A program made the translations under genes and the position numbers. From positions 1 to 28,943 of the IMG/VR virus record IMGVR_UViG_3300030376_005909: 28,943 nt of DNA; one strand, 5' to 3'. Numbering within the stretch: the first letter of the stretch is position 1; each line of letters opens with the position of its first letter. The DNA comes from a virus. Its lineage: Duplodnaviria > Caudoviricetes. A model generated the notes under the pieces. It searched no databases and was not told the origin of the DNA. It saw only the letters and a list, made by a program, of their open reading frames with translations. Positions 5,116 to 28,627 of this stretch are shown here, piece by piece.

Positions 5116-6297
5116 TTAAATGCCCCCTACCATTTTGTGGATATCAGACCAATTCATCTCGGCCAATTCATCCATATTTGGGAGTTTTATTACAGACTCT
5201 TCTTGAGCCTTAACGATTGAATTCTTCTCGTCAGTTAGAGACTTTCTCAGTTGAGTAAACTCTTCCTTCATTGAAGCGATTTCTGCTTGTGCATCATATT
5301 GAGACTTTGCTAGAATAGTCTCTTTATCAGAAACTTCTGCGTTAAAGCGAGCATCAAATGTTTTTTGTAGATTGTCATAAGCCAACTTTTCAAGTTGCTC
5401 TTGACGGTAAGCCTCGTAAGCCTTCTCGATGTTAGCATTAGACAAATCAAGAGTGCTTAGTTCTCCATTGTCAAAAGCCTTTACTACTGGCATATCGTGT
5501 GACTTTGGCTTACCATTGTCAATAACGACTCTATCAGCATTATCACCGATTTGAACTCCTGCGCCATCTACTGTTGGAACATAGGCTTTCTCTTCACTGT
5601 CCATGTATTCCATGCTTTCAGTCTCATCTTCCTCTTCTGTCATGTCCATTCCCTTTTCTTCTTCAGGCATGTCCATGCTTTCGTCTTCTTCCTTACGGAG
5701 AGTATTAACTTCAACCATAAGTGCGTCTAATTCTGCTAATGCTTTTTCAATTTTAGTCATTTTGCTCACTTCTTTTTCTTTTTTATCTTGTTTTAGAATA
5801 TCAAATCTTGCTTCTGGGTTTATTCCTTTTTCACAGATTGTTACTTCATGTAATTCTAATTTGCTAATTTCGTTGTAGTCTCCTAATTCTTGGTGGTTTT
5901 TCTTAACTTTCTCTAATGCTTGCCCACCTATACTAAATGACCTTAACGAACCTTTTCTGATGCCTCTGTTTATTTCCTTGGCTTTTTCTATATCATCTCT
6001 TAATTTAATAACTACAAAAAATCCCACATCATCTACTTCTGTTTTCCAAAGTTTTCCTGTTTTGTCTCTGTATGATTTTACAACTTCCCCTACTTGAACA
6101 TTAGAATGATTAGTCATTACATTTCTAAACTTAGGGTTCTCCATATATTTGTTAGTTGCTTCTTTAAGTGCTTTGAGTGTAATTAAGTCATTCTGTTTAT
6201 CAACGATTTCAATAGAAGCATAACCACCTATCATTAATTCATCGCTTTTTAGAATCCTGAACTCGTTGGCTCTGTTTGACATTACCGCCGAACTCAT
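5116..6297 (-). CDS. Prohead (maturation) protease fused to an acidic coiled-coil scaffold
   Basis: HK97-type protease motifs IGGYAS..VDKQND, H (MTNHS), RSFSIGG and LHEVTICEKGINPEA, followed by an acidic coiled-coil C-terminal half. Confidence 0.88.
   Translation of the reverse strand: MSSAVMSNRANEFRILKSDELMIGGYASIEIVDKQNDLITLKALKEATNKYMENPKFRNVMTNHSNVQVGEVVKSYRDKTGKLWKTEVDDVGFFVVIKLRDDIEKAKEINRGIRKGSLRSFSIGGQALEKVKKNHQELGDYNEISKLELHEVTICEKGINPEARFDILKQDKKEKEVSKMTKIEKALAELDALMVEVNTLRKEEDESMDMPEEEKGMDMTEEEDETESMEYMDSEEKAYVPTVDGAGVQIGDNADRVVIDNGKPKSHDMPVVKAFDNGELSTLDLSNANIEKAYEAYRQEQLEKLAYDNLQKTFDARFNAEVSDKETILAKSQYDAQAEIASMKEEFTQLRKSLTDEKNSIVKAQEESVIKLPNMDELAEMNWSDIHKMVGGI
5126..5157 (-). repeat. 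Copy 1 of a 32-bp repeat encoding M-[ND]-WSDIHKMVG
   Basis: 27/32 identical to 9384-9415. Confidence 0.8.
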
Positions 6298-6349: not shown

Positions 6350-8839
6350 TTAATTAGGAAAGGGTAATTTATTATATTTATCAGCATAAATGTTCCATTT
6401 CCCTTCATCTGTTTCGGTATCAGCAGGTTCTTGTTTATAGCCAGTCCATGCTAACCACATTTCTGTTCCTTTAACTTCAATTACTCTAAAGTGCATTTTA
6501 GTTTCAAATTTATTACCTTCTAAAAAATATTCATGGTAGCCATCTTTTTGGACTCCTAATTTAATTTTGCCGGAATCAATAACCTTACCTCTTTCAATAT
6601 TCTTTGCTACTTCTGCTGGATATTTACCAGCCGCACCAAATAAATCAAATAGTTCCTTTTCATCATCTAATTCAATTGTCCAAAACATAGTTTCTTTTTC
6701 TAATTTAATTGCTAAAGTAACATTATCATCTTCTCTAGAATACAATTTAAATTGTCCTTCTTGTAATTTTTCAGGAGTCTTATATTCCTTTAAAATTTCT
6801 TCTTCTTGCATAATTTTATCTTCATCTGCAACCAATTTATTTTCTCGTATAGAAATACCATCTCTTAATCCAGCCCATTGTTTTAAATCAGTTTCTTTAG
6901 ATTCTAAAATGTCTTCATATAATGATGGGTGATTTTTTACTAAATGAAGATGCACTTCTTTAATAATTGATGGCCCTTTTAATTTTAAGAATTGAAAAAT
7001 AGCCACAGTTAATTCGCTTTGTTTGGATTTCATAATATCAATAGCCTGTTGCTTCCACATATCTAAATCCATTAAAGCGTTTTTAGACATTAAATTATTT
7101 TGCTCGAAGCCATAAATAGTAAATCCATTCATATCAGACTTAATAATTAAATTAGTTTCACCGTGAATATAATCAGTAATTTTAATACCTTTAGTTAAGG
7201 CCTCAACATCATAATTTAAAGATTTTTTAGTATCTTTAGAAAGTAATTCTAGAGTAACTAATTTATCAGGGTAATTTACTTCAGGCACTTCTATTACTTT
7301 AGCAGAATATAAACTATAGGAATCTCCTTGCTTTTTGACCTCATCTACTTTGACTCTAATAATATCCCCTATATCAACAGACACTTTAGTATTGAGGGCT
7401 TTACCCACATTCATATAATTATCTCCTTTAATCTCAACTAAGTTATTTAAGTCTTCAGTGATTGGCCCTACACCTAAACCATAGGAATATAATCCGCTTT
7501 TGGTTTTCCTTTTAGTTAAAACCATAACATCTAAATCGACGAACTTTTTCCACTTAATCCACTTAGGGTTCTTTTTAGTGCCTACATAATAAGTAGAAGT
7601 AGCATCTTTTATTACTACACCTTCAGCAGTAGGAATTTCCATCATTTCCTTAGCATATTTCTCAATATCTTTTAAATTATCTGCTTCTCTAGTATCTTTT
7701 TTAGAAGGGAAGGCAATTGCATCATTAGATTTAGAAGAATAATTATTAAATAAAGTAATCATTCTTGCACTTAATTCTTCATCAGCCATAGTCTGTGCTT
7801 CGTGTCGTATAATATCGAAAACATGACATCTTAAATTAGCGTCTTGGTATTTATTCTTAAAAACATGAGCCACAGTATCTGCTCTATGTAATGCTTCTTC
7901 TCCTTTGAATAGAATCAATTCACCATCAAAAATACAATCACCGTATTCTTTCTTTTTAAGTTCTTTAACTTGTTCTGGACATTTATCAGTAATGTCTTTT
8001 TCATTATAAGAATAAATAGTAACTTTATCATCTAATTTATGTAATTGAATTCTCATACCATCATACTTTTCTTGAACATACCAATTACCACTAAATCCTT
8101 TTAACTCTTTAATGTCTTCAATATCAAATATTCTATACATTGGTTTATTAGGAATAATAAAATGAGAAACAGATTTCTTTTCATCAGACTTTTCAATCTC
8201 TGTTAATTCGACCCATTCTTCTTCTTCATGTTTAGAAAAGAAAATTAACTCTAATACATCCATAGCAGCAGTTACTTTGGATTCAACCTTCTTTGAGTCT
8301 TTTCCATCCCCATAATGCTCAATAATATAGAGAGCAATATCCTCTGACTCTAGGTCAAGACCTTCAAGACCCTCTGTTATTGTGTCAGGTTCCATGCCCT
8401 TAATGCTTAGAACTTCAGGTGAAAGAACTTTATTGTCTTCTCTTAGCGCATAATGCACGAATTTAACCATGCTTTCAGGATTAGATAGCAATTCTTCTAA
8501 GACATTTCCCTTAAACATTTTAGAAAAAGGGTCTTCTACCAATTTTGAAGAATATCTAATTAGTTTAATTTTTTCAAATAAATTAGTAGCACTAGGGCTA
8601 GTAGGGTCTTTGGTTTCCTTTTCCATTAAGTCATCTTCATCAATGTAATTATTCAGTTCTTTACCTGCTGAATCTAATTTGTTATAGGAGTCAATTATTA
8701 AATCAACTGTTTTACGCCAACGGCCCCCGTATTCTTTAGGGTCTGTTTTAGCAGAAAGATAGGCAACCCTAGTTTTTTCAAATAGTCTAAGTATTTCTTG
8801 AGAAGGTTGCTTATCCTTCTCAATAGAGCCGAGTTTCAT
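6350..8839 (-). CDS. lig: ATP-dependent DNA ligase with long N- and C-terminal extensions
   Basis: Motif I QEKYDGMR, III IFDGEL, IIIa VFDII, IV EGVVIK, V WIKWK, followed by an OB-fold-like region. Confidence 0.88.
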   Translation of the reverse strand: MKLGSIEKDKQPSQEILRLFEKTRVAYLSAKTDPKEYGGRWRKTVDLIIDSYNKLDSAGKELNNYIDEDDLMEKETKDPTSPSATNLFEKIKLIRYSSKLVEDPFSKMFKGNVLEELLSNPESMVKFVHYALREDNKVLSPEVLSIKGMEPDTITEGLEGLDLESEDIALYIIEHYGDGKDSKKVESKVTAAMDVLELIFFSKHEEEEWVELTEIEKSDEKKSVSHFIIPNKPMYRIFDIEDIKELKGFSGNWYVQEKYDGMRIQLHKLDDKVTIYSYNEKDITDKCPEQVKELKKKEYGDCIFDGELILFKGEEALHRADTVAHVFKNKYQDANLRCHVFDIIRHEAQTMADEELSARMITLFNNYSSKSNDAIAFPSKKDTREADNLKDIEKYAKEMMEIPTAEGVVIKDATSTYYVGTKKNPKWIKWKKFVDLDVMVLTKRKTKSGLYSYGLGVGPITEDLNNLVEIKGDNYMNVGKALNTKVSVDIGDIIRVKVDEVKKQGDSYSLYSAKVIEVPEVNYPDKLVTLELLSKDTKKSLNYDVEALTKGIKITDYIHGETNLIIKSDMNGFTIYGFEQNNLMSKNALMDLDMWKQQAIDIMKSKQSELTVAIFQFLKLKGPSIIKEVHLHLVKNHPSLYEDILESKETDLKQWAGLRDGISIRENKLVADEDKIMQEEEILKEYKTPEKLQEGQFKLYSREDDNVTLAIKLEKETMFWTIELDDEKELFDLFGAAGKYPAEVAKNIERGKVIDSGKIKLGVQKDGYHEYFLEGNKFETKMHFRVIEVKGTEMWLAWTGYKQEPADTETDEGKWNIYADKYNKLPFPN

Positions 8840-9370: not shown

Positions 9371-9619
9371 TCACTCCATTTGTCCAACCATCTTATGGAT
9401 ATCTGACCAATCCATATTAGATACATCAGTAGGGACACTTCCTGTTCCACCAATAGAATTATCCATAGCGGGAGTAGGACTATTAGTCACTACTAGTCCT
9501 GCTTTCATTAAAAGACTATCTTTAGCATAAATAGTCTTTTCTAATGCTTCTACTTTATCTGCTAATGCTTTCACTATTTGAAGCATTTCGTCGTTAATAT
9601 TTGTTTCTTCTTCTGTCAT
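9371..9619 (-). CDS. Small coiled-coil protein sharing the protease/scaffold C-terminal peptide (putative accessory scaffold)
   Basis: 82 aa: N-terminal coiled coil, flexible linker, ends in MDWSDIHKMVGQME. Confidence 0.7.
   Translation of the reverse strand: MTEEETNINDEMLQIVKALADKVEALEKTIYAKDSLLMKAGLVVTNSPTPAMDNSIGGTGSVPTDVSNMDWSDIHKMVGQME
9384..9415 (-). repeat. Copy 2 of the M-[ND]-WSDIHKMVG-encoding repeat
   Basis: 27/32 identical to 5126-5157. Confidence 0.8.
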
Positions 9620-13973: not shown

Positions 13974-14855
13974 CTATGCTTCAGTTATAGAACCTTCGGG
14001 AAATGATGCATTTACCCTTTCTAAACTTCTAACAAAGCGACTTACATGAGTCATTTTCTTGAGATTAATTCCTGTTTCGTAGTCATTATCATGCGCCCAA
14101 CTAACAAGTTGGTTAGTAGAAAGGTTGCTGCCACTAGTAGGAATAAAAGGGCAGCCCCCAAGCCCATTGATACTAGAATCAAAAGAAGTAACTCCTAAGT
14201 CTAAAGAAGACTTAACATTATTTAGTATATTGTTACCTCCTATTTTCTTCTCATGAAAGTGCATCGCTATTTTAGAATCAATATTCCGAGTTAATTCTAA
14301 GGCTTTGGCTATTTTTGTAGGGTAAGCACTACCTATAGTATCGCAGAGAACAACCGTTTCAGCAATATCACTGGCCTTAGTGATGGCATCTTTCAATTCA
14401 TGTTCAGCAGGTAGCCCTTCAAAGGGACAACCAAATGCACAAGAAACATAGGCTCTAACATCTTCTCTATTAGTATCACTTAACATTGTCTTTATATTAT
14501 CATATACTTCATCTAATTTTTTTCCTAAGTTTCTAATATTAAATTCATTAGAAGGAGAAAAAAATACATTTAGTTTTTTAGCACCCACCTTTTTAGCCCT
14601 ATCAAATCCTTTTTGGTTAGGAATAAGGACTCCTAAGTTTCCTAGTTCTTTAGTCTGAGAAAAAACTTCTTCTGCGTCTGCTAGATTGGGAACCCTTTTA
14701 GGATGAACAAATGAAGTCGCCTCTATGTTCTTAAAACCCGCATAATAAAGTTCTTCAATCATAGTTATTTTATCAGAAGTAGATACTTTAAATTTACTAT
14801 TTTGTAAGCCATCTCTAGGCCCAACTTCATATATGTTTAAATCCATCCTCACCAC
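13974..14855 (-). CDS. hmgL: Hydroxymethylglutaryl-CoA lyase (DRE-TIM metallolyase)
   Basis: IYEVGPRDGLQN, IEATSFVHPKRVP, YVSCAFGCPFEG, LCDTIG, HFH metal site and GLGGCPF with the catalytic Cys. The start may instead be ATG 14846. Confidence 0.88.
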   Translation of the reverse strand: MVRMDLNIYEVGPRDGLQNSKFKVSTSDKITMIEELYYAGFKNIEATSFVHPKRVPNLADAEEVFSQTKELGNLGVLIPNQKGFDRAKKVGAKKLNVFFSPSNEFNIRNLGKKLDEVYDNIKTMLSDTNREDVRAYVSCAFGCPFEGLPAEHELKDAITKASDIAETVVLCDTIGSAYPTKIAKALELTRNIDSKIAMHFHEKKIGGNNILNNVKSSLDLGVTSFDSSINGLGGCPFIPTSGSNLSTNQLVSWAHDNDYETGINLKKMTHVSRFVRSLERVNASFPEGSITEA

Positions 14856-15482: not shown

Positions 15483-17093
15483 TCACACCATATCATAATC
15501 ACTTTTAGGATTTAACCAATCTCTTTTTTTCCCATCAGCAGTAATCTCATACCAAATAAAACCGCTAAACTCTCCAAGTTTATCTCCTAACCAATCTCGC
15601 AAGTTATCCTCAATGTCTTCATAAGAGGCATCTATTTCTAGTCCTAACTCCTTAGCCGTTTCCATCATATTAAGTTCAATATCTTCCATCGGTTCATCTT
15701 CTGTTGAATAAGACTCAATTACAAAAGTCCTTTCTTGTTGTTTAAGAATACTTTCATGGCTTTCTAAACTATCCATAGTAGACATTTTACAATTGGCTTG
15801 TAACTTAGCAATATCAGTTAAATAAATATCTTCTTTGAGCCAATCGTAACCTACGTGGTCTTTGTGATTTTCCCATTTCATTAACTTAAAAATTTCATCG
15901 CATCTAGACTTATACCAATCTGTTTTCTTATATCCTTTTTTCATTCGGATAAGTTCTAGAAGTAGTTTAGCATTGCCTTTCTTTAATCTAAAATGAGGCA
16001 AGCACTTAGTCAACAAGTCGGTGACATCATCTTGTGAATAAAAGTTTAATCTTTGAATAAGCCTTGTCTGTTGAGGAGATTTTTGGTCTAGATGCATTCG
16101 CCCATACCCTATTGACTTATGCATTTCTTCCATGAAAGCCTTACCTCTCGAACCTGTTGCAATTAAACCTACTCTTGGATTCATATTACGGTCTAAAGTA
16201 ATATAACCATCAGAGTCAATAAAAGCAGCAGTATAAGCCCAAATATTTTTCTTAATCATAGACGGCATCTTATAATAAGAACCATTAGATGAAACAATAT
16301 CTAATTTTTTAATTGCTTTAGCAATTGTATTTGGGCTACTTATTTTAAATAAAGGAGTAGGCATTATTTCGTGAATGTTCTGTGCAGTAATTCCGGGTTG
16401 TTCACAAACAGATTTAAGAATAAAATCTTCTTGTCTTTGCTTTTTAGTTTTAGTAATAGACTGGTTAGTAATTTTAGAAATAGCATTTCTAAAATCTTTT
16501 TTAGCCAATCTCATTTCTTTAGCAAGTTCACTATACTCTTTACTATAAGCCATGCCTTCTTGTTTTTGTTCGGCTTCCCAATACTTACATAGAGAATCGA
16601 CAGTCTCTCTTCTTAACTCAAGGCTTTTCATTTTATTAAGTTTAGATAAGTCTTTTTCATTATATCTCATTTTAGATAGAGGAACAGTATAATCACTTAG
16701 CCAAGTAATAGAACCAATGCACTTTTGTAAATGGTCTGCATAGGCATCAATCATTGTATCAATAGCCTTTGCCATTTTAATTCTTTGTTCCCCTTTTAAT
16801 GCTCTGCGGGATTTTCTCATCTTTCTAATCAAATCAGGAATAGAATGTTCTTCAACAAGATATTGGTCAGGAAAAACACTTAACTGTTTTCTAGCCTCAG
16901 TAGAATTTATATTTAATGTAGATGCTAATTTAGTTATTTCTTCATGCTCTGACATTACATGAGAGACACTTTTTAACTCCGTATCTAATTGAGTTTCTAT
17001 ACTATCTTTAGTTTCTTCCTCTTCTTCATCTAATTCAGCCAAACGATTCATTTGTTGAGCCGCCTCTCGATATTTATCTGCTTGCTCTGTCAC
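15483..17093 (-). CDS. Multi-domain protein: helical N-terminus + winged-HTH-like segment + single LAGLIDADG endonuclease domain + acidic tail
   Basis: IWAYTAAFIDSDGYI motif with downstream LTKCLPHFRLKK. Upstream ILKSVCEQPGITAQNIH...SPNTIAKAI. GTG start after GAGGTGG. Confidence 0.75.
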   Translation of the reverse strand: MTEQADKYREAAQQMNRLAELDEEEEETKDSIETQLDTELKSVSHVMSEHEEITKLASTLNINSTEARKQLSVFPDQYLVEEHSIPDLIRKMRKSRRALKGEQRIKMAKAIDTMIDAYADHLQKCIGSITWLSDYTVPLSKMRYNEKDLSKLNKMKSLELRRETVDSLCKYWEAEQKQEGMAYSKEYSELAKEMRLAKKDFRNAISKITNQSITKTKKQRQEDFILKSVCEQPGITAQNIHEIMPTPLFKISSPNTIAKAIKKLDIVSSNGSYYKMPSMIKKNIWAYTAAFIDSDGYITLDRNMNPRVGLIATGSRGKAFMEEMHKSIGYGRMHLDQKSPQQTRLIQRLNFYSQDDVTDLLTKCLPHFRLKKGNAKLLLELIRMKKGYKKTDWYKSRCDEIFKLMKWENHKDHVGYDWLKEDIYLTDIAKLQANCKMSTMDSLESHESILKQQERTFVIESYSTEDEPMEDIELNMMETAKELGLEIDASYEDIEDNLRDWLGDKLGEFSGFIWYEITADGKKRDWLNPKSDYDMV

Positions 17094-18538: not shown

Positions 18539-19099
18539 TCACCTAATTTTAATTAAGTTAAACCAGTCACCCATAATATCATCAGGATAAGAACATTTAG
18601 CCATATCCTCTGCTCCTTTAACTGGACGAATAGCCATATTAGAACGAAAGCGAGAAAGCCAATCAGTTAATACTTCTTCAGGAATTAAAGTTTTATATTT
18701 TTCCCAATTAGGGTCGCCCACAAAAGCCCAACCATTATCTTTCGCATGTTGAATCCATCTAGCAGTATCGCCCTTTTTATCAGCCCTACCAAAAGCAGCA
18801 ACTAAAGGTTTAGATTGATTTATCTGCCGTTCTCTTGCTGATACTATTGCTTTGTATTGGCCCGCTGGTGCATTTTCTAATGCCTTAACTCCACCAACTG
18901 CTGTATGAGTAGGGTGTTCCTTCCAACCGCTAGCGGCTATTACTTTACCTTCATCATTTACACGAACTATCCATTTATCTAAAGCATAGCGACCCTCAAT
19001 CAAATCACTTTGTCTATTATAAGGCTCATCAGGATTATCAGCATCCCATTTTTCTTTCATGCCTTGATATGAAAAAATAGAAGGTAATACTTTAGACAT
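18539..19099 (-). CDS. Possible GNAT-fold protein with a C-terminal W-x-x-L-I-K motif
   Basis: Start ATG 19099 after GGTGA. WIVRVNDEGKVIAASG...AVGGVKA...AKDNGW resembles the GNAT strand order. Ends DWFNLIKIR. Confidence 0.5.
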   Translation of the reverse strand: MSKVLPSIFSYQGMKEKWDADNPDEPYNRQSDLIEGRYALDKWIVRVNDEGKVIAASGWKEHPTHTAVGGVKALENAPAGQYKAIVSARERQINQSKPLVAAFGRADKKGDTARWIQHAKDNGWAFVGDPNWEKYKTLIPEEVLTDWLSRFRSNMAIRPVKGAEDMAKCSYPDDIMGDWFNLIKIR

Positions 19100-21750: not shown

Positions 21751-24045
21751 TTATTCACCTACTCTTAGAAGTCCATATTTTTCTACAAATTGCTTTTTAG
21801 CATTTATTATTTGATTGGGAGGGAAATTATAGGGTTTAGTTGCGAACTCTTCTAGTTTTATTCTAAATGCACCAACAGTTTCTTTTTTCATTTTATCTAT
21901 CAATGAAGGCATATTATCGTCTAATTGCCCCGCTACTTTAATTGCATTGTCTGAATCGGGGTCTTTGTCTATTGTCTTAAATGCTTCCCTTACTTCGCCA
22001 TTAGAAGTCAAATCAGCCATCTGAGAAAAGAAACTTAAACTTCTTTCAGGAGTAATTTGGTCTAATGCTGCTGCTGAATTCTCTATCTTTTCAACTAATT
22101 TAGTAAGGCCACCTTCATCTTTTAATTTTTTAGCCATACTTAGAACATACTTAGCAAAGGTGCTGCTATCAAGAAGCCCCTGCCTTAAAGATTGAGTCTT
22201 CTCTCCAATGTCTTTAGGACTTATTCCTGACTCCATTCTTTCTTTTATTTCATTAATTAATCTTTCAAGTTTCTCAACTCTTTTAGTGCCTATTTCTTTT
22301 CCTTCTTTGGGCAAGGTCGCAAGTTTCTTTTTTGCTGCTATAAGTTCTTTTTCTTTGGTTTCAAGTTCTTTCTGTCCTCTTTCTTTACGCCCCGATGCTT
22401 CAGGAGTAGTTACTTTTAATTTTCGTCCGGTGTTCTCGTCTTGCCATTTATAAGCAGATTCAGGAGTTAATCCATCACCATCAAGAGTTACTTTAGCATA
22501 GTTAGCCCTTTCTTTTCCTTTATCGTAACGAGTAATAATTGAACCTTTTTCATCTCTTTTTACATTACCTTCACTATCTATGTCATTTATAGTTTCTCCA
22601 GTTGGAAAACCATCTCTAAAATATTCTATTTCTAGTTCATCTTCAGGATATTCTTCTTTGTCTAATTGAGAATAAAATTCTTCAAAGTCTGCCGCTTCTT
22701 TAATAGTGAAATTCCCTTTTAAATATTGCAATTGACCGGCTTGTAGTTCATCTTTAGCCCTTGACAACTGGTTTCCTAAATTATAATTAGTATCAATAAT
22801 TTCAATAATTTTAGACTTAACTGAACTATCAGATGAAGTTCTAAAATCACCCATGATATTATTAATAATGTTTTTCATAGAATCAATTTGACCTTCTCTA
22901 AAATAGTCACTTTTCTCGCCGGTTTTCATAGAAACATAAATATCATTAATAATTTTTGTTTGGGCGTCTTTATTACTTAGCATTTGGGTCTTTCTTAGAG
23001 TATCAAAGAAGGTTTTGAACCAAGTTTCTCCGCCATAATCTCCTAGTAGAATTAATTCACTATAAGGATTCAAATTCATAGAATTAGGGCTACTTTTTTC
23101 CAAGAAAAGAACCTTAGCAGTATCAGCAGTATTAGGATATTTCTTTGGCCTAAAGGCTCTTACACTTCCTGTAATATTATCAACTGCTTTTATGTATTTT
23201 ATTACAGAACTCTCATCAAAAGGCTCAACAACTGATAATTTAATGTTTGAAGCAATAAATAATTTTCCTTGAGCAACTAAATCATCCGCATCAATAACAT
23301 TTCCTCCAGCATGTAACTTCCATTTAGAATTTTTTAGGTTTTTATTGTAAAATTCTTTAATTTCTTTCTTTTCTGCTACTATTTCAGGTGTATCTAAAAT
23401 TGCCCCAGTTTTTTTATCTATTTTAGGGTTTAATGCTTGAATAAAATCATTTTCGGAAGTATAATCTACTAAAATTATGTCTCCTTTGGCCTCTCCGCCA
23501 ATTAATTTGGCAAATTGCCCTATGAGTTTGGAATTTTCAGGTAGACCTTCAAAGGAAAGGTAAGGTTTGTCTGCTTTTAGCCGCAAAATCTCTAATTTAG
23601 TTCTTAAATCTTTATTTGTTCTAAGTGTTCTCTCACTTAAATGACCTTTTTCATCAATTTCTTGTAAAATTTCCTCAACTAACTGATTATTTCCTTTAGT
23701 TTTGGCTTCAAGCCCTTCTTCTACTTTTGCTTTCACATCAGCCGTAGTCATAAAAGTTAAAGCGTCTTTAAGTTTAGTAATATTTTCTTCAATTTGACTT
23801 AATTCTAAATCAGCAACAGGACTATTTGAGTAAGGAGCAATAATATCTTCTAATGGAGGATTGCCTCCTTCAATACTTATTAAAAGACCCTTTAAATAAT
23901 TGAATTTTTTCTTAATTTTATCGTCAGTTAAGTCTGCTTCTTCAATTCTTTTAATGAGTCTCGCTGTGCTTGCTGCATTGACTATAGTAATAGCAAAAAA
24001 ACTCTTCTCTTGAGGAATAGCCTTCAATACAGTTTGCCAAAGCAC
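21751..24045 (-). CDS. Large hypothetical protein with N-terminal W-x-x-V-L-K tag
   Basis: 764 aa, GTG start overlapping the upstream TAG, begins MLWQTVLKA. Confidence 0.75.
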   Translation of the reverse strand: MLWQTVLKAIPQEKSFFAITIVNAASTARLIKRIEEADLTDDKIKKKFNYLKGLLISIEGGNPPLEDIIAPYSNSPVADLELSQIEENITKLKDALTFMTTADVKAKVEEGLEAKTKGNNQLVEEILQEIDEKGHLSERTLRTNKDLRTKLEILRLKADKPYLSFEGLPENSKLIGQFAKLIGGEAKGDIILVDYTSENDFIQALNPKIDKKTGAILDTPEIVAEKKEIKEFYNKNLKNSKWKLHAGGNVIDADDLVAQGKLFIASNIKLSVVEPFDESSVIKYIKAVDNITGSVRAFRPKKYPNTADTAKVLFLEKSSPNSMNLNPYSELILLGDYGGETWFKTFFDTLRKTQMLSNKDAQTKIINDIYVSMKTGEKSDYFREGQIDSMKNIINNIMGDFRTSSDSSVKSKIIEIIDTNYNLGNQLSRAKDELQAGQLQYLKGNFTIKEAADFEEFYSQLDKEEYPEDELEIEYFRDGFPTGETINDIDSEGNVKRDEKGSIITRYDKGKERANYAKVTLDGDGLTPESAYKWQDENTGRKLKVTTPEASGRKERGQKELETKEKELIAAKKKLATLPKEGKEIGTKRVEKLERLINEIKERMESGISPKDIGEKTQSLRQGLLDSSTFAKYVLSMAKKLKDEGGLTKLVEKIENSAAALDQITPERSLSFFSQMADLTSNGEVREAFKTIDKDPDSDNAIKVAGQLDDNMPSLIDKMKKETVGAFRIKLEEFATKPYNFPPNQIINAKKQFVEKYGLLRVGE

Positions 24046-24311
24046 TAAGATTCCACCTTTAAAATAGTTAAAATTATCTTGAACATACCTATTCTTTGCT
24101 TTTCTGTGGCTGACATGCCTGACTCTAGTAATGTTTTAATCGTTTCTTTAGCATCAGAATTAGATAAAGAATTAAATTTATTCTTTAAAGATTTAAGACC
24201 ATCAGGAATAGGTGTGTCCTTCCACCTTTCATAATCAAATTCTCCTAATAGGACTTCGCTGAGTGCTTTCCACTCTTCCTTTTCTGTTTTAAGAATACTT
24301 TGCCAACTCAT
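24045..24311 (-). CDS. Cassette gene 5, tagged small protein
   Basis: 88 aa, MSWQSILKT, start codon inside repeat 24303-24331. Confidence 0.75.
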   Translation of the reverse strand: MSWQSILKTEKEEWKALSEVLLGEFDYERWKDTPIPDGLKSLKNKFNSLSNSDAKETIKTLLESGMSATEKQRIGMFKIILTILKVES

Positions 24312-24328
24312 TGTAATCTCTCCTGCAT

Positions 24329-24733
24329 TTACCTATACTGTTCCCATGATTCTATTTCCTTAATAGCCTCTGCTATTGAATTAACCTCGTCGCCCATTTC
24401 ATTACTATCCTCGTTTTGAGGATAATATCTATATAGTATCTTGTCGGCCATATTGTTTACTTTAGTTTCATTATTGACATGCCTTTCAATTTCTGCTTGC
24501 ACTTGCTCAGGGCTTTTATTTTTCCAAGTTGTGTCAAAATCAACATATTCATCATCATTTTGGTATTCGTCTAAATCTCGAACAATAACATCTCCGTTAC
24601 TAACAATACCAACATCAATAACAACTTTTATGGAGTCATCTGTTGTTCTATCTCCAAACCCATAAGGGAAATACTCTCCATCGCTACCATAGGTTTCACT
24701 CCTATAATTTTTTAATATTTCTTTCCAACTCAT
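24329..24733 (-). CDS. Cassette gene 4, acidic tagged protein (paralog of 25110-25493)
   Basis: 134 aa, MSWKEILKN, contains DGEYFPYGFG. Confidence 0.78.
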   Translation of the reverse strand: MSWKEILKNYRSETYGSDGEYFPYGFGDRTTDDSIKVVIDVGIVSNGDVIVRDLDEYQNDDEYVDFDTTWKNKSPEQVQAEIERHVNNETKVNNMADKILYRYYPQNEDSNEMGDEVNSIAEAIKEIESWEQYR

Positions 24734-24750
24734 TGTAATTTCTCCTGCAT

Positions 24751-25104
24751 TTACAAATCAAATATACTCGGTTGGTTAGGGTCTATATTCGGTCTTTGTT
24801 TAGGTTTCTTTAGACGAGACAATGGCTCTTTTCTTTTTCTTTTAAGAGAAGGTTGTTCATTAAAGAATTTTTCAAAAGCAACAATATCTAAAAATCTCTC
24901 ATAGTTGTTTTCATCTAAATCTTCGGGTTTAATCTCCCCGAAGTTTGTAAGGTCGGCTAATTCATGAGACTGTTCATAAATAATAGCCTTTCCACTTTCT
25001 TGGCCCACTCTTTTATTGCTCATATTTTTAATTTCTTCTTTTCTTTTGTCAATATCCTGTCTAACCTTTTCGGAATATCCTTTCAATATATCTTGCCAAC
25101 TCAT
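24751..25104 (-). CDS. Cassette gene 3, tagged small protein
   Basis: Start ATG 25104 inside the repeat gives MSWQDILKG. Confidence 0.75.
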   Translation of the reverse strand: MSWQDILKGYSEKVRQDIDKRKEEIKNMSNKRVGQESGKAIIYEQSHELADLTNFGEIKPEDLDENNYERFLDIVAFEKFFNEQPSLKRKRKEPLSRLKKPKQRPNIDPNQPSIFDL

Positions 25105-25109
25105 TGTAA

Positions 25110-25493
25110 TCACTTCCATTCTTTTACTGCTGAAATTGCTTGTTGTAATGTATATTCTTGGTGGCCTGAACCAAGACTATCTTCACCATCTTGATATGGT
25201 TGAAATACTACGGTAACAATGTCAAATTTATCCCACATAGATTCTATCTCATCTTTAACTTCTTGTTCAATTGACTCAATAGGTTTTCCAGTATTCCAGT
25301 TACCTTTCCAATTTTTACTTCCCGCCCCATCCATAACCTCAAACATTTGGCCGTTTGCGTAAACCCCAACATATCTTGTTATTTCTTCTTCATCATCATC
25401 ATCGCTATTTCCAAAGTATTGAGGGAAATAGTGTCCATCACCGGCATAATATTCAGAAGGTGCATCATATTTAATTATATCTTTCCAACTCAT
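25110..25493 (-). CDS. Cassette gene 2, acidic tagged protein (paralog of 24329-24733)
   Basis: 127 aa, MSWKDIIKY, contains DGHYFPQYFG. Confidence 0.78.
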   Translation of the reverse strand: MSWKDIIKYDAPSEYYAGDGHYFPQYFGNSDDDDEEEITRYVGVYANGQMFEVMDGAGSKNWKGNWNTGKPIESIEQEVKDEIESMWDKFDIVTVVFQPYQDGEDSLGSGHQEYTLQQAISAVKEWK

Positions 25494-25747
25494 TGTAATT
25501 CCTCCTGCATCTCTTTAATTGATTCTTCTAAAACATCAAGGAATTTTTTTATTCTTTCGTTGCGATAGGCAGGGTCTTTTTGTTGAAGTAATTTAATCAT
25601 CTCAATACCTGCTTTCATATCTCTAATGCGCTCAGGAATATTGTGTTTTGCTTTCCTTTTTTGTTTTCGCCTTTCATTCAGTTTACCCATATTTCTATTC
25701 GCCCTGCGAGCCTCCCTAGAAGGGTATCTTTTGTTAATATCAGTCAT
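25490..25747 (-). CDS. Cassette gene 1, basic small protein without the tag
   Basis: 85 aa, R/K-rich, ends MQEELQ* through the repeat, ATGA overlaps at both ends. Confidence 0.7.
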   Translation of the reverse strand: MTDINKRYPSREARRANRNMGKLNERRKQKRKAKHNIPERIRDMKAGIEMIKLLQQKDPAYRNERIKKFLDVLEESIKEMQEELQ

Positions 25748-26409
25748 TGTAATTTCTCCTGCATTTTAGATTTAATCTCAAGCCAAATGTCGGGATTGTT
25801 CTGTGCAAGCACTTCTTGAACAATTTGCATTTGTGCGACTATAATAGTATCTTGTCTCTTATGAATGAGTTTACCCTTAAACTCCATAAGATATTTTAGC
25901 GACTCTCTAATTTCCCTTGCTAACTTAGTAAGAGCATCAATCATCTTAGGGTCAAGGTCATTTCCTAATTCGTCAAATACCTGCGATAATCGCACATCTA
26001 ACTTAGCAACATTGTTTGATAGTAAATCAACTTCATCTACTTCCTTTTTCGCTATCATAAGTGCTGCGGATTCCTGCACGATTGGCATCAAGTGGTGCTT
26101 CATGTGTCTTTGGACTTGACTTTTTGTAGTGTTAAGAGCAGTAGAAACCGCCTCACTAGTAATATTACCTTCATTGATGGCCTGTTCATAATGCTTCCTC
26201 ATAGGGTCTGTGCATAAAACACATTTTGGATTGGATGACATTTTATATTCACCCATATGATTTCTTTGATGTTGAGCAGATGTCCCGCTTCTCCAATCAT
26301 TAGCCTTATCTAATTCATCACAAGTCACTGTTCCCATTTCAAGAGAAGATTCTAATTCCTCTCTATTCTCGGATTGGCACAAACCACAACGCTTACGATT
26401 AACTGTCAT
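25744..26409 (-). CDS. Tandem CxxC/His Zn-HTH protein with coiled-coil tail; putative terminase small subunit
   Basis: Two units, CGLC...QHQRNH and CVLC...RHMKHH, then helical oligomerisation-like segments. Upstream of terL. Likely start ATG 26409. The TerS role is an inference. Confidence 0.55.
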   Translation of the reverse strand: MTVNRKRCGLCQSENREELESSLEMGTVTCDELDKANDWRSGTSAQHQRNHMGEYKMSSNPKCVLCTDPMRKHYEQAINEGNITSEAVSTALNTTKSQVQRHMKHHLMPIVQESAALMIAKKEVDEVDLLSNNVAKLDVRLSQVFDELGNDLDPKMIDALTKLAREIRESLKYLMEFKGKLIHKRQDTIIVAQMQIVQEVLAQNNPDIWLEIKSKMQEKLQ

Positions 26410-26411
26410 AG

Positions 26412-27539
26412 TTAATTCCGCCATAGTAGGTGTTGCCACATTTTACTAATCACTTTATTGTCGGGACTAGTGGCGTCCTTTCCATATTTTTCTCTACGAG
26501 TCTTTCGGTAATCAAATCCTCTCTTGGTTTTATTTTGCCAAGCCCTATACTGATTAGGTGCTTTGATAGTGTTCTTTCTTTTTAATGCTCTATTAGTTAA
26601 AGTAATAATAGGAGTAGCAGTAGTCATTAATTTAAAAGTAGTTACTCTTCCAGCAAGCCCTTCCTTTTCTTTTATACTACCTAAGTTGGCTAATTCTCTA
26701 ATCATGGCTTGGTCTTTATTGCTCAAGTTAAAAGAAGTAGACTGTAATTCTCTTCTAACTTTATCCACTAATAGTTTTCCACCAGAATTCCAATAAGTTT
26801 CTTCTCTGACTACTTTGTTAAAGAAGTCTTCAATGGCACTAAGTTCATCAATATCTGCTGCATCTGTTCCGCTAGGTAAAGTGTCAATTTCAACTTCTAT
26901 TTCCGCATCATCTATGTCTTCTGCTGCTTCTTGCATAATATATAACAGGCCTTTAGGTTTAGAATACGGGCCACTTGAGTATGAAAATAATGCTTCATGA
27001 GGAGGATTGTTGCCTGTCATCCATTCATCAGGAACCTTTGATACTCCTTCATGTCTTTTAGCATACCATTCAGTAGCGTAATGCCCTTGAACTGTTCTAG
27101 GTGCAAGTTTTTCTCCCGTTGGAGTTTTGTCTTGTTCAGTAAATAGAATAAAAGCAGGGTCAAAAGCGGGGGTTGTTCCGCCAGCATCTTTACCAGTCTT
27201 TTCCATAGCCTTTAATGCTTTAGCGTATTCAGCAATAAATTCTGCTTGAACATTAGTAAATAATTCAGGCCCATCTACCATGTCTTCAATAACCTCTAAA
27301 AATTGAATTGCACCTTGACCATCTAAACCCTGATTCCTACTATTTTCTCTAATGTTATCTTGCATATGGTTTTTCAACATAGTGTATAAATCAGGAATGT
27401 TTTTTACTTTTAAATCGCCACCGCTAACTCCTTCACAGTTAGTTCTCCAAGTATTAAAATCATCAATAAAATTACTTTTTACTTCTTGTTTAACTCTATT
27501 ACCTTTATAGGGAACATAGTTTTTCTTTTCATCTGGCAT
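26412..27539 (-). CDS. Hypothetical protein
   Basis: About 375 aa, start 27539 or 27548 (GGAGG RBS), basic C-terminus ending ISKMWQHLLWRN. Confidence 0.75.
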   Translation of the reverse strand: MPDEKKNYVPYKGNRVKQEVKSNFIDDFNTWRTNCEGVSGGDLKVKNIPDLYTMLKNHMQDNIRENSRNQGLDGQGAIQFLEVIEDMVDGPELFTNVQAEFIAEYAKALKAMEKTGKDAGGTTPAFDPAFILFTEQDKTPTGEKLAPRTVQGHYATEWYAKRHEGVSKVPDEWMTGNNPPHEALFSYSSGPYSKPKGLLYIMQEAAEDIDDAEIEVEIDTLPSGTDAADIDELSAIEDFFNKVVREETYWNSGGKLLVDKVRRELQSTSFNLSNKDQAMIRELANLGSIKEKEGLAGRVTTFKLMTTATPIITLTNRALKRKNTIKAPNQYRAWQNKTKRGFDYRKTRREKYGKDATSPDNKVISKMWQHLLWRN

Positions 27540-28357: not shown

Positions 28358-28627
28358 TCACCTTCTAGATTTATTGCCATGACACTTCCACTTTTTACGG
28401 CTTAAGTTGTTAGGGCTGTTTGGGTCTTTACGCCAATCACCTTTGATATTATTTGACCTTGCACAGTAAGCATCTCCCTTAGAAGTTCCCGGCCTGATTC
28501 TATCTTTACCATCTTTGGCTTTACCTGCTTGGCCATATTTGACAGTTTTTTTTCTTCCTGTTTTTTTATTAGTAACTACTTTCTTAAAGCGCCTTTTAAA
28601 TTTTAAGACTTCTTTCCATTCGCTCAT
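28358..28627 (-). CDS. Small, highly basic protein with N-terminal W-x-x-V-L-K tag
   Basis: 89 aa, MSEWKEVLKF. The KTVKYGQ...AYCARS...SPNNLSRKKWKC pattern resembles small basic proteins I recall from marine viruses. Confidence 0.75.
   Translation of the reverse strand: MSEWKEVLKFKRRFKKVVTNKKTGRKKTVKYGQAGKAKDGKDRIRPGTSKGDAYCARSNNIKGDWRKDPNSPNNLSRKKWKCHGNKSRR

Follow-up and report, generated by a model that had tools for sequence, protein, structure and literature searches.

A polar, repeat-assisted gene accordion behind a conserved head-module gene of a predicted marine archaeal virus

Integrons gather promoterless cassettes of a single open reading frame (ORF) with little non-coding DNA, the newest in the proximal position, by means of the tyrosine recombinase IntI, the attI site and the attC hairpin. 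CRISPR arrays grow in a polar manner at the leader, where the first repeat is duplicated, and their distal repeats decay. In the PeSL cassettes of T4-type phages, repeated short intergenic elements flank single ORFans, mini-circles were shown and the authors likened the system to integrons (Arbiol et al. 2010, PMC2839356), and PeSL-like motifs also occur in the halovirus HGTV-1 (PMC3950731). The T4 internal proteins are packaged, injected and block host defences (PMC3012670), and those of T-even phages share a short N-terminal capsid targeting sequence (PMC3012670, PMC12373910, PMC9391042). We analysed a locus in a 28,943-nt stretch of viral DNA (IMG/VR record IMGVR_UViG_3300030376_005909, positions 1 to 28,943; hereafter the window), in which copies of the 3' end of a conserved gene, X, alternate with small genes (cassettes) up to a second conserved gene, Y. 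Most cassette proteins begin with a short tag of the consensus M-S-W-x-x-I-[LI]-K. The locus is a repeat-assisted polar gene accordion, which works like PeSL shuffling, carries a payload like the T-even internal proteins and is not an integron. Our reading, to which we assign a probability of roughly 0.7, is that a hypervariable accessory-gene slot lies behind X, that its content is exchanged with no integrase, by a general recombination system acting on short homologies of ~40 bp made up of tail copy, ATG and tag codons, and that the tag is a predicted signal for loading of the proteins into the prohead.

An original prediction, made by reading the window's DNA, had described the X tail as recurring with one small gene in each interval. 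This array is real, with copies matching the X tail at 20/21, 21/21 and 20/21 positions and one degenerate copy, all on the minus strand, which carries every long ORF of the window. The copies stem from the X tail and supply the expression signals GGAG and ATG, as had been proposed, and four of them run into MSWxxI[LI]K, while the native one runs into an untagged 85-aa gene. The start of the third cassette was corrected to 25104. The parts of the array are as follows.

25744 to 26409, minus strand: gene X, 221 aa, the conserved anchor, with two Cys/His plus helix-turn-helix units and then a long helical hairpin (alignment, structure model)
25744 to 25764, minus strand: founder repeat, the MQEKLQ* codons (last six codons and stop of X, 21 nt), with a GGAG ribosome-binding site and a stop overlapping the next ATG (ATGA)
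25490 to 25747, minus strand: cassette 1, 85 aa, basic, untagged, its last codons being a tail copy read in frame (..MQEELQ*); the family occurs at 5 loci dispersed across the X tree
25490 to 25510, minus strand: repeat copy 2, 20/21 against the X tail, read in frame by cassette 1
25110 to 25493, minus strand: cassette 2, 127 aa, acidic, tagged, a paralogue of cassette 4
25101 to 25121, minus strand: repeat copy 3, degenerate, reduced to the final ~11 nt; cassette 3, a recent transfer, has its left border here
24751 to 25104, minus strand: cassette 3, 117 aa, tagged
24730 to 24750, minus strand: repeat copy 4, 21/21, its first base following directly on the cassette-3 stop; forms a mini-ORF of 6 codons that overlaps the following ATG
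24329 to 24733, minus strand: cassette 4, 134 aa, acidic, tagged; represented by 3 clusters in a set of 5.8 billion proteins
24308 to 24328, minus strand: repeat copy 5, 20/21, with a G allele absent from this genome's own X tail; a 6-codon mini-ORF like that of copy 4
24045 to 24311, minus strand: cassette 5, 88 aa, tagged, distal and older, last also in L001, L006 and L008, with no tail copy behind it
21751 to 24045, minus strand: gene Y, 764 aa, tagged, the conserved right boundary, which in empty sites is coupled to X directly

Successive copies are spaced by 254, 389, 371 and 422 nt, each interval holding one gene, and the best match to the 21-nt X tail in the rest of the window, on both strands, is at most 15/21. 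Four of the five small genes have such a recurrence of the X tail in front of them. In cassettes 3 and 4 the stop immediately precedes the ATG of the copy, leaving a six-codon mini-ORF whose own stop overlaps the next start, and the tag codons lengthen the homology shared at the copies to ~40 bp. Cassettes 2 and 4 are paralogous (30% identity, E 4e-14); the remaining window cassettes are unrelated. No Rfam match was obtained and, as the original prediction had stated, no integrase or transposase family was matched among the 34 window proteins.

Relatives were retrieved with gene X (130 stretches, best 80 kept), which is present in 80/80 of those kept at 57-88% identity. After exclusion of 2 loci that were truncated, 3 that lacked a right boundary and 2 that were duplicates, 73 relatives and the window gave 74 loci for analysis. 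The right boundary was defined as the first ORF of at least 450 aa, whose homology to the window's Y is not always detectable in distant loci, and genes were called automatically, with a few wrong starts. The slot behind X holds 0-8 genes, as expected from the proposal that cassette number varies and that empty sites with a single copy exist; X is joined to the right-boundary gene in 5 of the 74 loci. Altogether the slots contain 231 genes with a median length of 91 aa, which form 144 families after masking of tag and tail, 91 of them singletons. None of 110 representatives of at least 75 aa (110 of the 144 families; the window's own cassettes were scanned separately) scored above cut-off in Pfam. 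A search of complete genomes, which the original prediction had called for, located the repeat only at the array in 5/5 complete relatives, with 1-5 copies each and 0 in the control. Homologues of 24 of the 144 families were found elsewhere in the fetched loci, which suggests that the head module itself is a source of genes. One tagged gene lies upstream of X in the window (28358-28627); in L007 and L009 its homologues are members of the array, and in L011 and L049 they are found downstream of Y. These differing places suggest that genes move between head-module slots. L049 is also the only relative in which X has a different C-terminus (..FQSDLQ*, L049:5465-6130), and its slot is empty, a single case.

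Several comparisons point to exchange at the repeat. In L025 X is directly coupled to Y, and in L028 a 413-nt insert of one tagged gene and one tail copy stands between them; the flanks are 96% (X) and 98% (Y) alike and the insert is the sole array difference. In L184, whose X shares 55% identity with that of the window, the first cassette matches the window's cassette 3 at 99.3% over 404 nt; the stretch of identity opens within the upstream copy and closes within the tag codons of the next gene. The same cassette is 73% identical in L002, and in both L184 and L002 it stands first in the array with other neighbours. Many further cassette pairs that are 80-99% identical have differing neighbours and borders within tail and tag, so that breakpoints fall in the repeat as originally proposed, and some near-identical cassette bodies carry different tags. 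Cassette identity at the DNA level exceeds that of the corresponding X genes by at least 5 points in 15 of 138 pairs, and several families are scattered over the X tree (FastTree, read without support values). In public sequencing runs X7 and X9, contigs join gene X straight to cassette 5, with similar joints in runs X5 and X15; all of these joints have short sides and are supporting only. In run X6 cassette 3 has a depth of 20 where neighbouring pieces have 2-3.4; gaps in read cover over cassettes were counted only if bridged by a contig. Joints at which a contig turns back, considered as traces of excised circles, have sides of less than 40 nt and fit cross-mapping of the repeat, and were rejected as evidence. 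Since Y remains linked to X in 18 of 20 close pairs, the events are two-sided (insertion or patch) rather than swaps of whole arms. No clear rise in divergence was found at the 3' end of X in close pairs, which suggests that donor patches mostly stop at the tail.

The array is polar, with turnover mostly at the front and stable distal genes. In 50 of 62 arrays the X tail is matched better at the first junction than at the last, the reverse being true of 9; when the Y junction is left out, the first junction is the better one in 24 and the worse one in 11 of 42 arrays (p 0.0007). Among 20 pairs of loci with X at least 95% identical, 2 have the same content and 2 the same first cassette, while 13 have the same last cassette; for the 14 disjoint non-empty close pairs, the first cassette is common in 2 and the last in 11. 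Singletons occupy the first position in 32 of 62 arrays and the last in 13 (p 0.0007). By these data, the integron trait of having the newest cassette at the proximal site fits the array. The original prediction had also expected cassette order to vary, which was not borne out: cassette-family pairs common to two genomes keep their order in 17/17 cases, 5 further rows being within-locus paralogues.

The junctions indicate how the copies relate to X and to the genes that follow them. A match of 13/17 to the X tail lies upstream of 63 of 145 tagged ORFs inside the array and of 1 of 392 outside it. At a polymorphic tail position the copy follows the X of its own genome at 66 of 80 junctions, or 35 of 38 when one is taken per locus. 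The 62 families with a copy divide into those whose stop touches the mini-ORF ATG (17), in-frame fusions (15), those whose stop overlaps AGGAG (15) and others (15), and the mini-ORF is open in 17/17 of the families with stop/ATG contact. The cassette unit consists of tag, body and trailing tail copy. The idea that genes acquire the tag from the repeat is contradicted by the near absence of tail copies before tagged ORFs elsewhere and by the L025/L028 cassette, which brought its own tag; the tag belongs to the genes and occurs throughout the module.

We propose that a new copy would arise when the stop/start junction of a tagged head-module gene joins the X tail at a 3-5-nt microhomology (ATG or AG), and that the joins retained would be those leaving the next gene a ribosome-binding site and translational coupling, the tail copy acting as a translational coupler. 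In archaea, overlapping stop/start pairs with an upstream ribosome-binding site lead to such coupling (PMC6728339), so the border of the copy may be explained by microhomology together with selection for coupling. The cassette could later enter other arrays via two crossovers or as a circle. X's coding sequence would preserve the founder copy while derived copies degenerate; new cassettes would then be directed to the front, and the distal genes would be frozen in place.

Several results weigh against this reading. Only 62 of the 231 junctions match the tail at 14/17 or better and 169 lack a good copy, one cassette end joins a cassette-5 homologue without a tail copy (L183), tagged genes that lack tail copies are gained in the slot upstream of X as well, and changes are seen in mid-array (L044/L045 and L054/L056). 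On these grounds the repeat is a preferred, not an obligatory, crossover site: it helps exchange but is not required. The contig data contain no observed recombination event, circle or enzyme, and the allele and polarity counts are adjusted for relatedness only via one-per-locus counting and disjoint pairs. As regards the machinery, the Rad51 profile matched in 0/5 complete relatives, and AAA_24 (Sak4-like) ATPase matches were weak, below the curated cut-off in 5/5 genomes, with Pfam and Atlas naming different ORFs for it in the 94-kb relative G002. The 5' border of the copy is sharp, with an unbroken match of 12-19 nt in 61 of 62 families, as a targeted enzyme would also give. For the predicted loading, some cassettes are untagged, cassette 1 among them, the N-terminal tag (WxxILK) differs from the motif at the end of the scaffold (WxDIHK), and that scaffold motif was one of six search patterns, which biases its count given below.

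The slot upstream of X, between the gene for a 375-aa protein and X (junction of 26412-27539 and 25744-26409), is empty in the window and measures 225-1208 nt in 18 of the 27 relatives listed, including L001, L006 and L029-L031. It mostly begins with a tagged gene, holds no X-tail copies and is a second variable slot of another kind. In L065, three weak tail-like matches (17-20 of 24) precede tagged genes ~3.5-4.0 kb upstream of the X stop and are perhaps a second small array.

The rival that survives best, though we consider it unlikely, is that a dedicated viral enzyme of an unrecognised kind places complete ORFs at the X tail, with a duplication of 13-19 nt of that tail, like Cas1-Cas2 at the leader-proximal repeat or IntI at attI. 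The front-end polarity, the sharp 5' edge of the copy (frequently the base that follows the cassette stop) and the resident X allele in the copy would all suit such an enzyme, most viral ORFs are unannotated, and relatives encode a PD-(D/E)XK exonuclease, with a Cas4-like match below cut-off. A search for recombinases beyond the window, as had been suggested, yielded no tyrosine recombinase (PF00589, control 14/14), no Cas1 (PF01867) and no resolvase, reverse transcriptase or Y1 transposase profile in 5/5 complete relatives, and none of these recombinase families among the 67 ORFs scanned with Pfam and the 52 scanned with PHROGs of the ~120 ORFs of G002. No attC-like hairpin forms at any of the five window copies, which fold no better than shuffled sequences (z -0.64 to 1.73), and no fixed crossover was found, the borders lying at varying places in tail and tag. 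These results and the spread of crossovers over ~40 bp leave the integron part of the original prediction unsupported. At least two border classes, chimeric tags and tails and the mid-array changes likewise speak against a dedicated enzyme. By an extension of this rival, a shade less likely again, magroviruses would possess a new kind of targeted gene capture: complete ORFs, from their start to their stop codon, would be added by the viral enzyme to the tail of a packaging gene that is essential, a translational coupler of 13-19 nt would be copied at each insertion, and the array would chronicle the injected anti-defence payload, newest first. For general recombination, as in our preferred reading, the PD-(D/E)XK exonuclease and the AAA_24 ATPases are candidates as leads only. 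One G002 ORF scores 0.97 to Atlas clusters in which 17-75% of members carry AAA_24, the Sak4 annealase family, and single-strand annealing proteins pair 40-50-bp sequences (PMC8093625).

It is quite improbable that selection for the same ribosome-binding site, spacing and tag made unrelated gene starts alike, in a slot that varies by ordinary mosaicism. The copy does hold GGAG at standard spacing, the tag codons are common to the whole module and the neighbouring slot between the 375-aa gene and X varies without a tail copy; the contrast of 1/392 with 63/145 tagged ORFs largely refutes this account, and the copies include the non-coding letters ATGCA and ATTACA and follow the resident X allele.

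Less probable still is that the mosaics are assembly artefacts, chimeras in which a metagenome assembly jumps from one co-occurring virus to another at the 40-bp repeat. As far as known, every data set is a short-read assembly, and Logan contigs break and pile up at the copies in 8/8 runs examined. A second assembly (L182) is however 100% identical over 4256 nt, including the whole array, although it is possibly from the same sample; contigs of public run X1, possibly the source run, tile the array at an even depth of 7.3-8.5, yet break at the copies; and the X-Y linkage in 18/20 close pairs and the conserved order in 17/17 family pairs would not be expected of such chimeras. Tandem duplication of one gene followed by divergence, to which the paralogous cassettes 2 and 4 and one further within-locus paralogue pair in L014 might point, is scarcely credible and is refuted for most cassettes by the 144 families, the case in which all cassettes are homologous having been named beforehand as one that would overturn the cassette proposal.

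Loading into the prohead is the likeliest role of the tag, by analogy with the T4 capsid targeting sequence, at somewhat better than even odds. The strict tag occurs in 178 of 231 cassette proteins, the window encodes 10 proteins with an N-terminal tag and 4 with a similar C-terminal motif, and 63/63 tagged ORFs of four complete genomes lie on the structural strand. A motif similar to the tag ends the protease/scaffold in 72 of 76 relatives (subject to the search bias noted above); in the window it lies here:

5116 to 5160, minus strand: C-terminus of the prohead protease/scaffold, with the tag-like motif W-S-D-I-H-K

Four window proteins end in a C-terminal tag-like motif (9371-9619, 18539-19099, 26412-27539 and 5116-6297), W-S-D-I-H-K being common to the 82-aa protein and the protease/scaffold. 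The tag codons vary less inside the array (19.7 of 24) than outside (18.2), as expected if they take part in recombination. Like the T-even internal proteins, the cassette products are diverse, small and non-homologous, share only a short N-terminal motif and are encoded at variable loci (PMC3012670, PMC12373910, PMC9391042). They differ in the motif, in an archaeal host and in that the motif is also found on large conserved proteins and at C-termini. If the 8-residue tag loads cargo, it would be an archaeal counterpart of the T4 capsid targeting sequence. By position alone, the slot singles out well over 100 families of small proteins with rapid turnover, which are candidates for anti-defence or host-takeover factors delivered by the virion and stand in rough order of age.

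Promoterless single-ORF cassettes, the newest proximal, with little non-coding DNA are traits that the array has in common with integrons, from which it differs in lacking IntI, an attC hairpin and a fixed crossover and in an order that is not reshuffled. Polar growth, duplication of the first repeat and decay of distal repeats recall CRISPR acquisition; unlike there, the inserts are whole genes of ~100-1100 nt, Cas1 is absent and the copies vary in length. The likeness is closer to PeSL, in which repeats also flank single accessory genes, with filled and empty sites, chimeric copies, borders in the repeat and no integrase (PMC2839356). Unlike the PeSL repeat, which combines a promoter with a stem-loop terminator, the array repeat is the coding 3' end of a conserved gene and holds translation signals only, with no promoter or stem-loop found: a sigma-70 promoter and terminator scan, outside which archaeal promoters fall, gave chance level, and 13-19 nt is too short for a promoter. 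It is confined to one late locus and includes tag codons, and the array is polar. In the papers searched (supplements apart), including PMC11706807, PMC10160649 and PMC5434244 on magroviruses, the group to which we assign the window below, we found no description of such an array, the only analogues being those of T4 and haloviruses. The array also shows how a conserved gene's coding tail can double as translational coupler and as an entry point that renews itself, so that polarity of the integron type arises with no integrase.

Gene X is plausibly a terminase small subunit (terS), as the original prediction had named it. Its helix-turn-helix and helical architecture fits this role, and it lies 7 kb from terL; the homology searches added only a weak match to the unannotated gene 108 of HVTV-1 (31% probability, E 5e-4), which lies two genes upstream of terL. 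No match was found in Pfam, PHROGs, NCBIfam or annotated phages, no source name was attached to the best 120 of 963 homologues, and the structure model (predicted local distance difference test score, pLDDT, 67) has no fold match in the PDB or BFVD.

Magroviruses, of which to our knowledge no isolate exists, have hosts among some of the most abundant archaea of the ocean. By its gene content, the window is a head-module fragment of a magrovirus, a marine archaeal virus. It encodes a terminase large subunit, portal, prohead protease, major capsid protein, ATP-dependent ligase and an endonuclease-like gene, and its major capsid protein matches annotated phages strongly only in the haloviruses HCTV-1, HVTV-1 and HCTV-5 (23-24% identity, 8/11 records). 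Magrovirus groups A and B have been reported to carry a ligase within the structural module (PMC5434244). The HK97-type head module nearest to haloviruses, the ligase in that module and the relative G002 (= L087), whose 94 kb with a PolB replisome compare with the ~90-110 kb given for the order, agree with the description of Magrovirales (PMC5434244). G002 has a split PolB, a clamp loader, a chaperonin and a second ligase, and the split PolB makes clade B likely for the window.

Other genes of the window and of G002 were also noted. The ATP-dependent DNA ligase (6350-8839, 829 aa; 1001 aa in G002) has long unassigned extensions and lies directly before the protease. A 536-aa gene after terL (15483-17093) has a C-terminal homing-endonuclease-like domain (phrog_5046, E 8e-6), and an HMG-CoA-lyase-like gene (13974-14855, PF00682, E 2.5e-25) lies between the endonuclease-like gene and the portal; at the equivalent position G002 has tagged genes, one of them for a PAP2 phosphatase. 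A small P-loop GTPase-like gene (1433-2101, PF01926 just under cut-off) is located amid membrane-protein genes downstream of the capsid gene. In G002, genes for a TFIIB zinc-ribbon protein and for ThiF/E1, Myb-like and JAB-domain proteins stand in a single row (L087:6304-10165).

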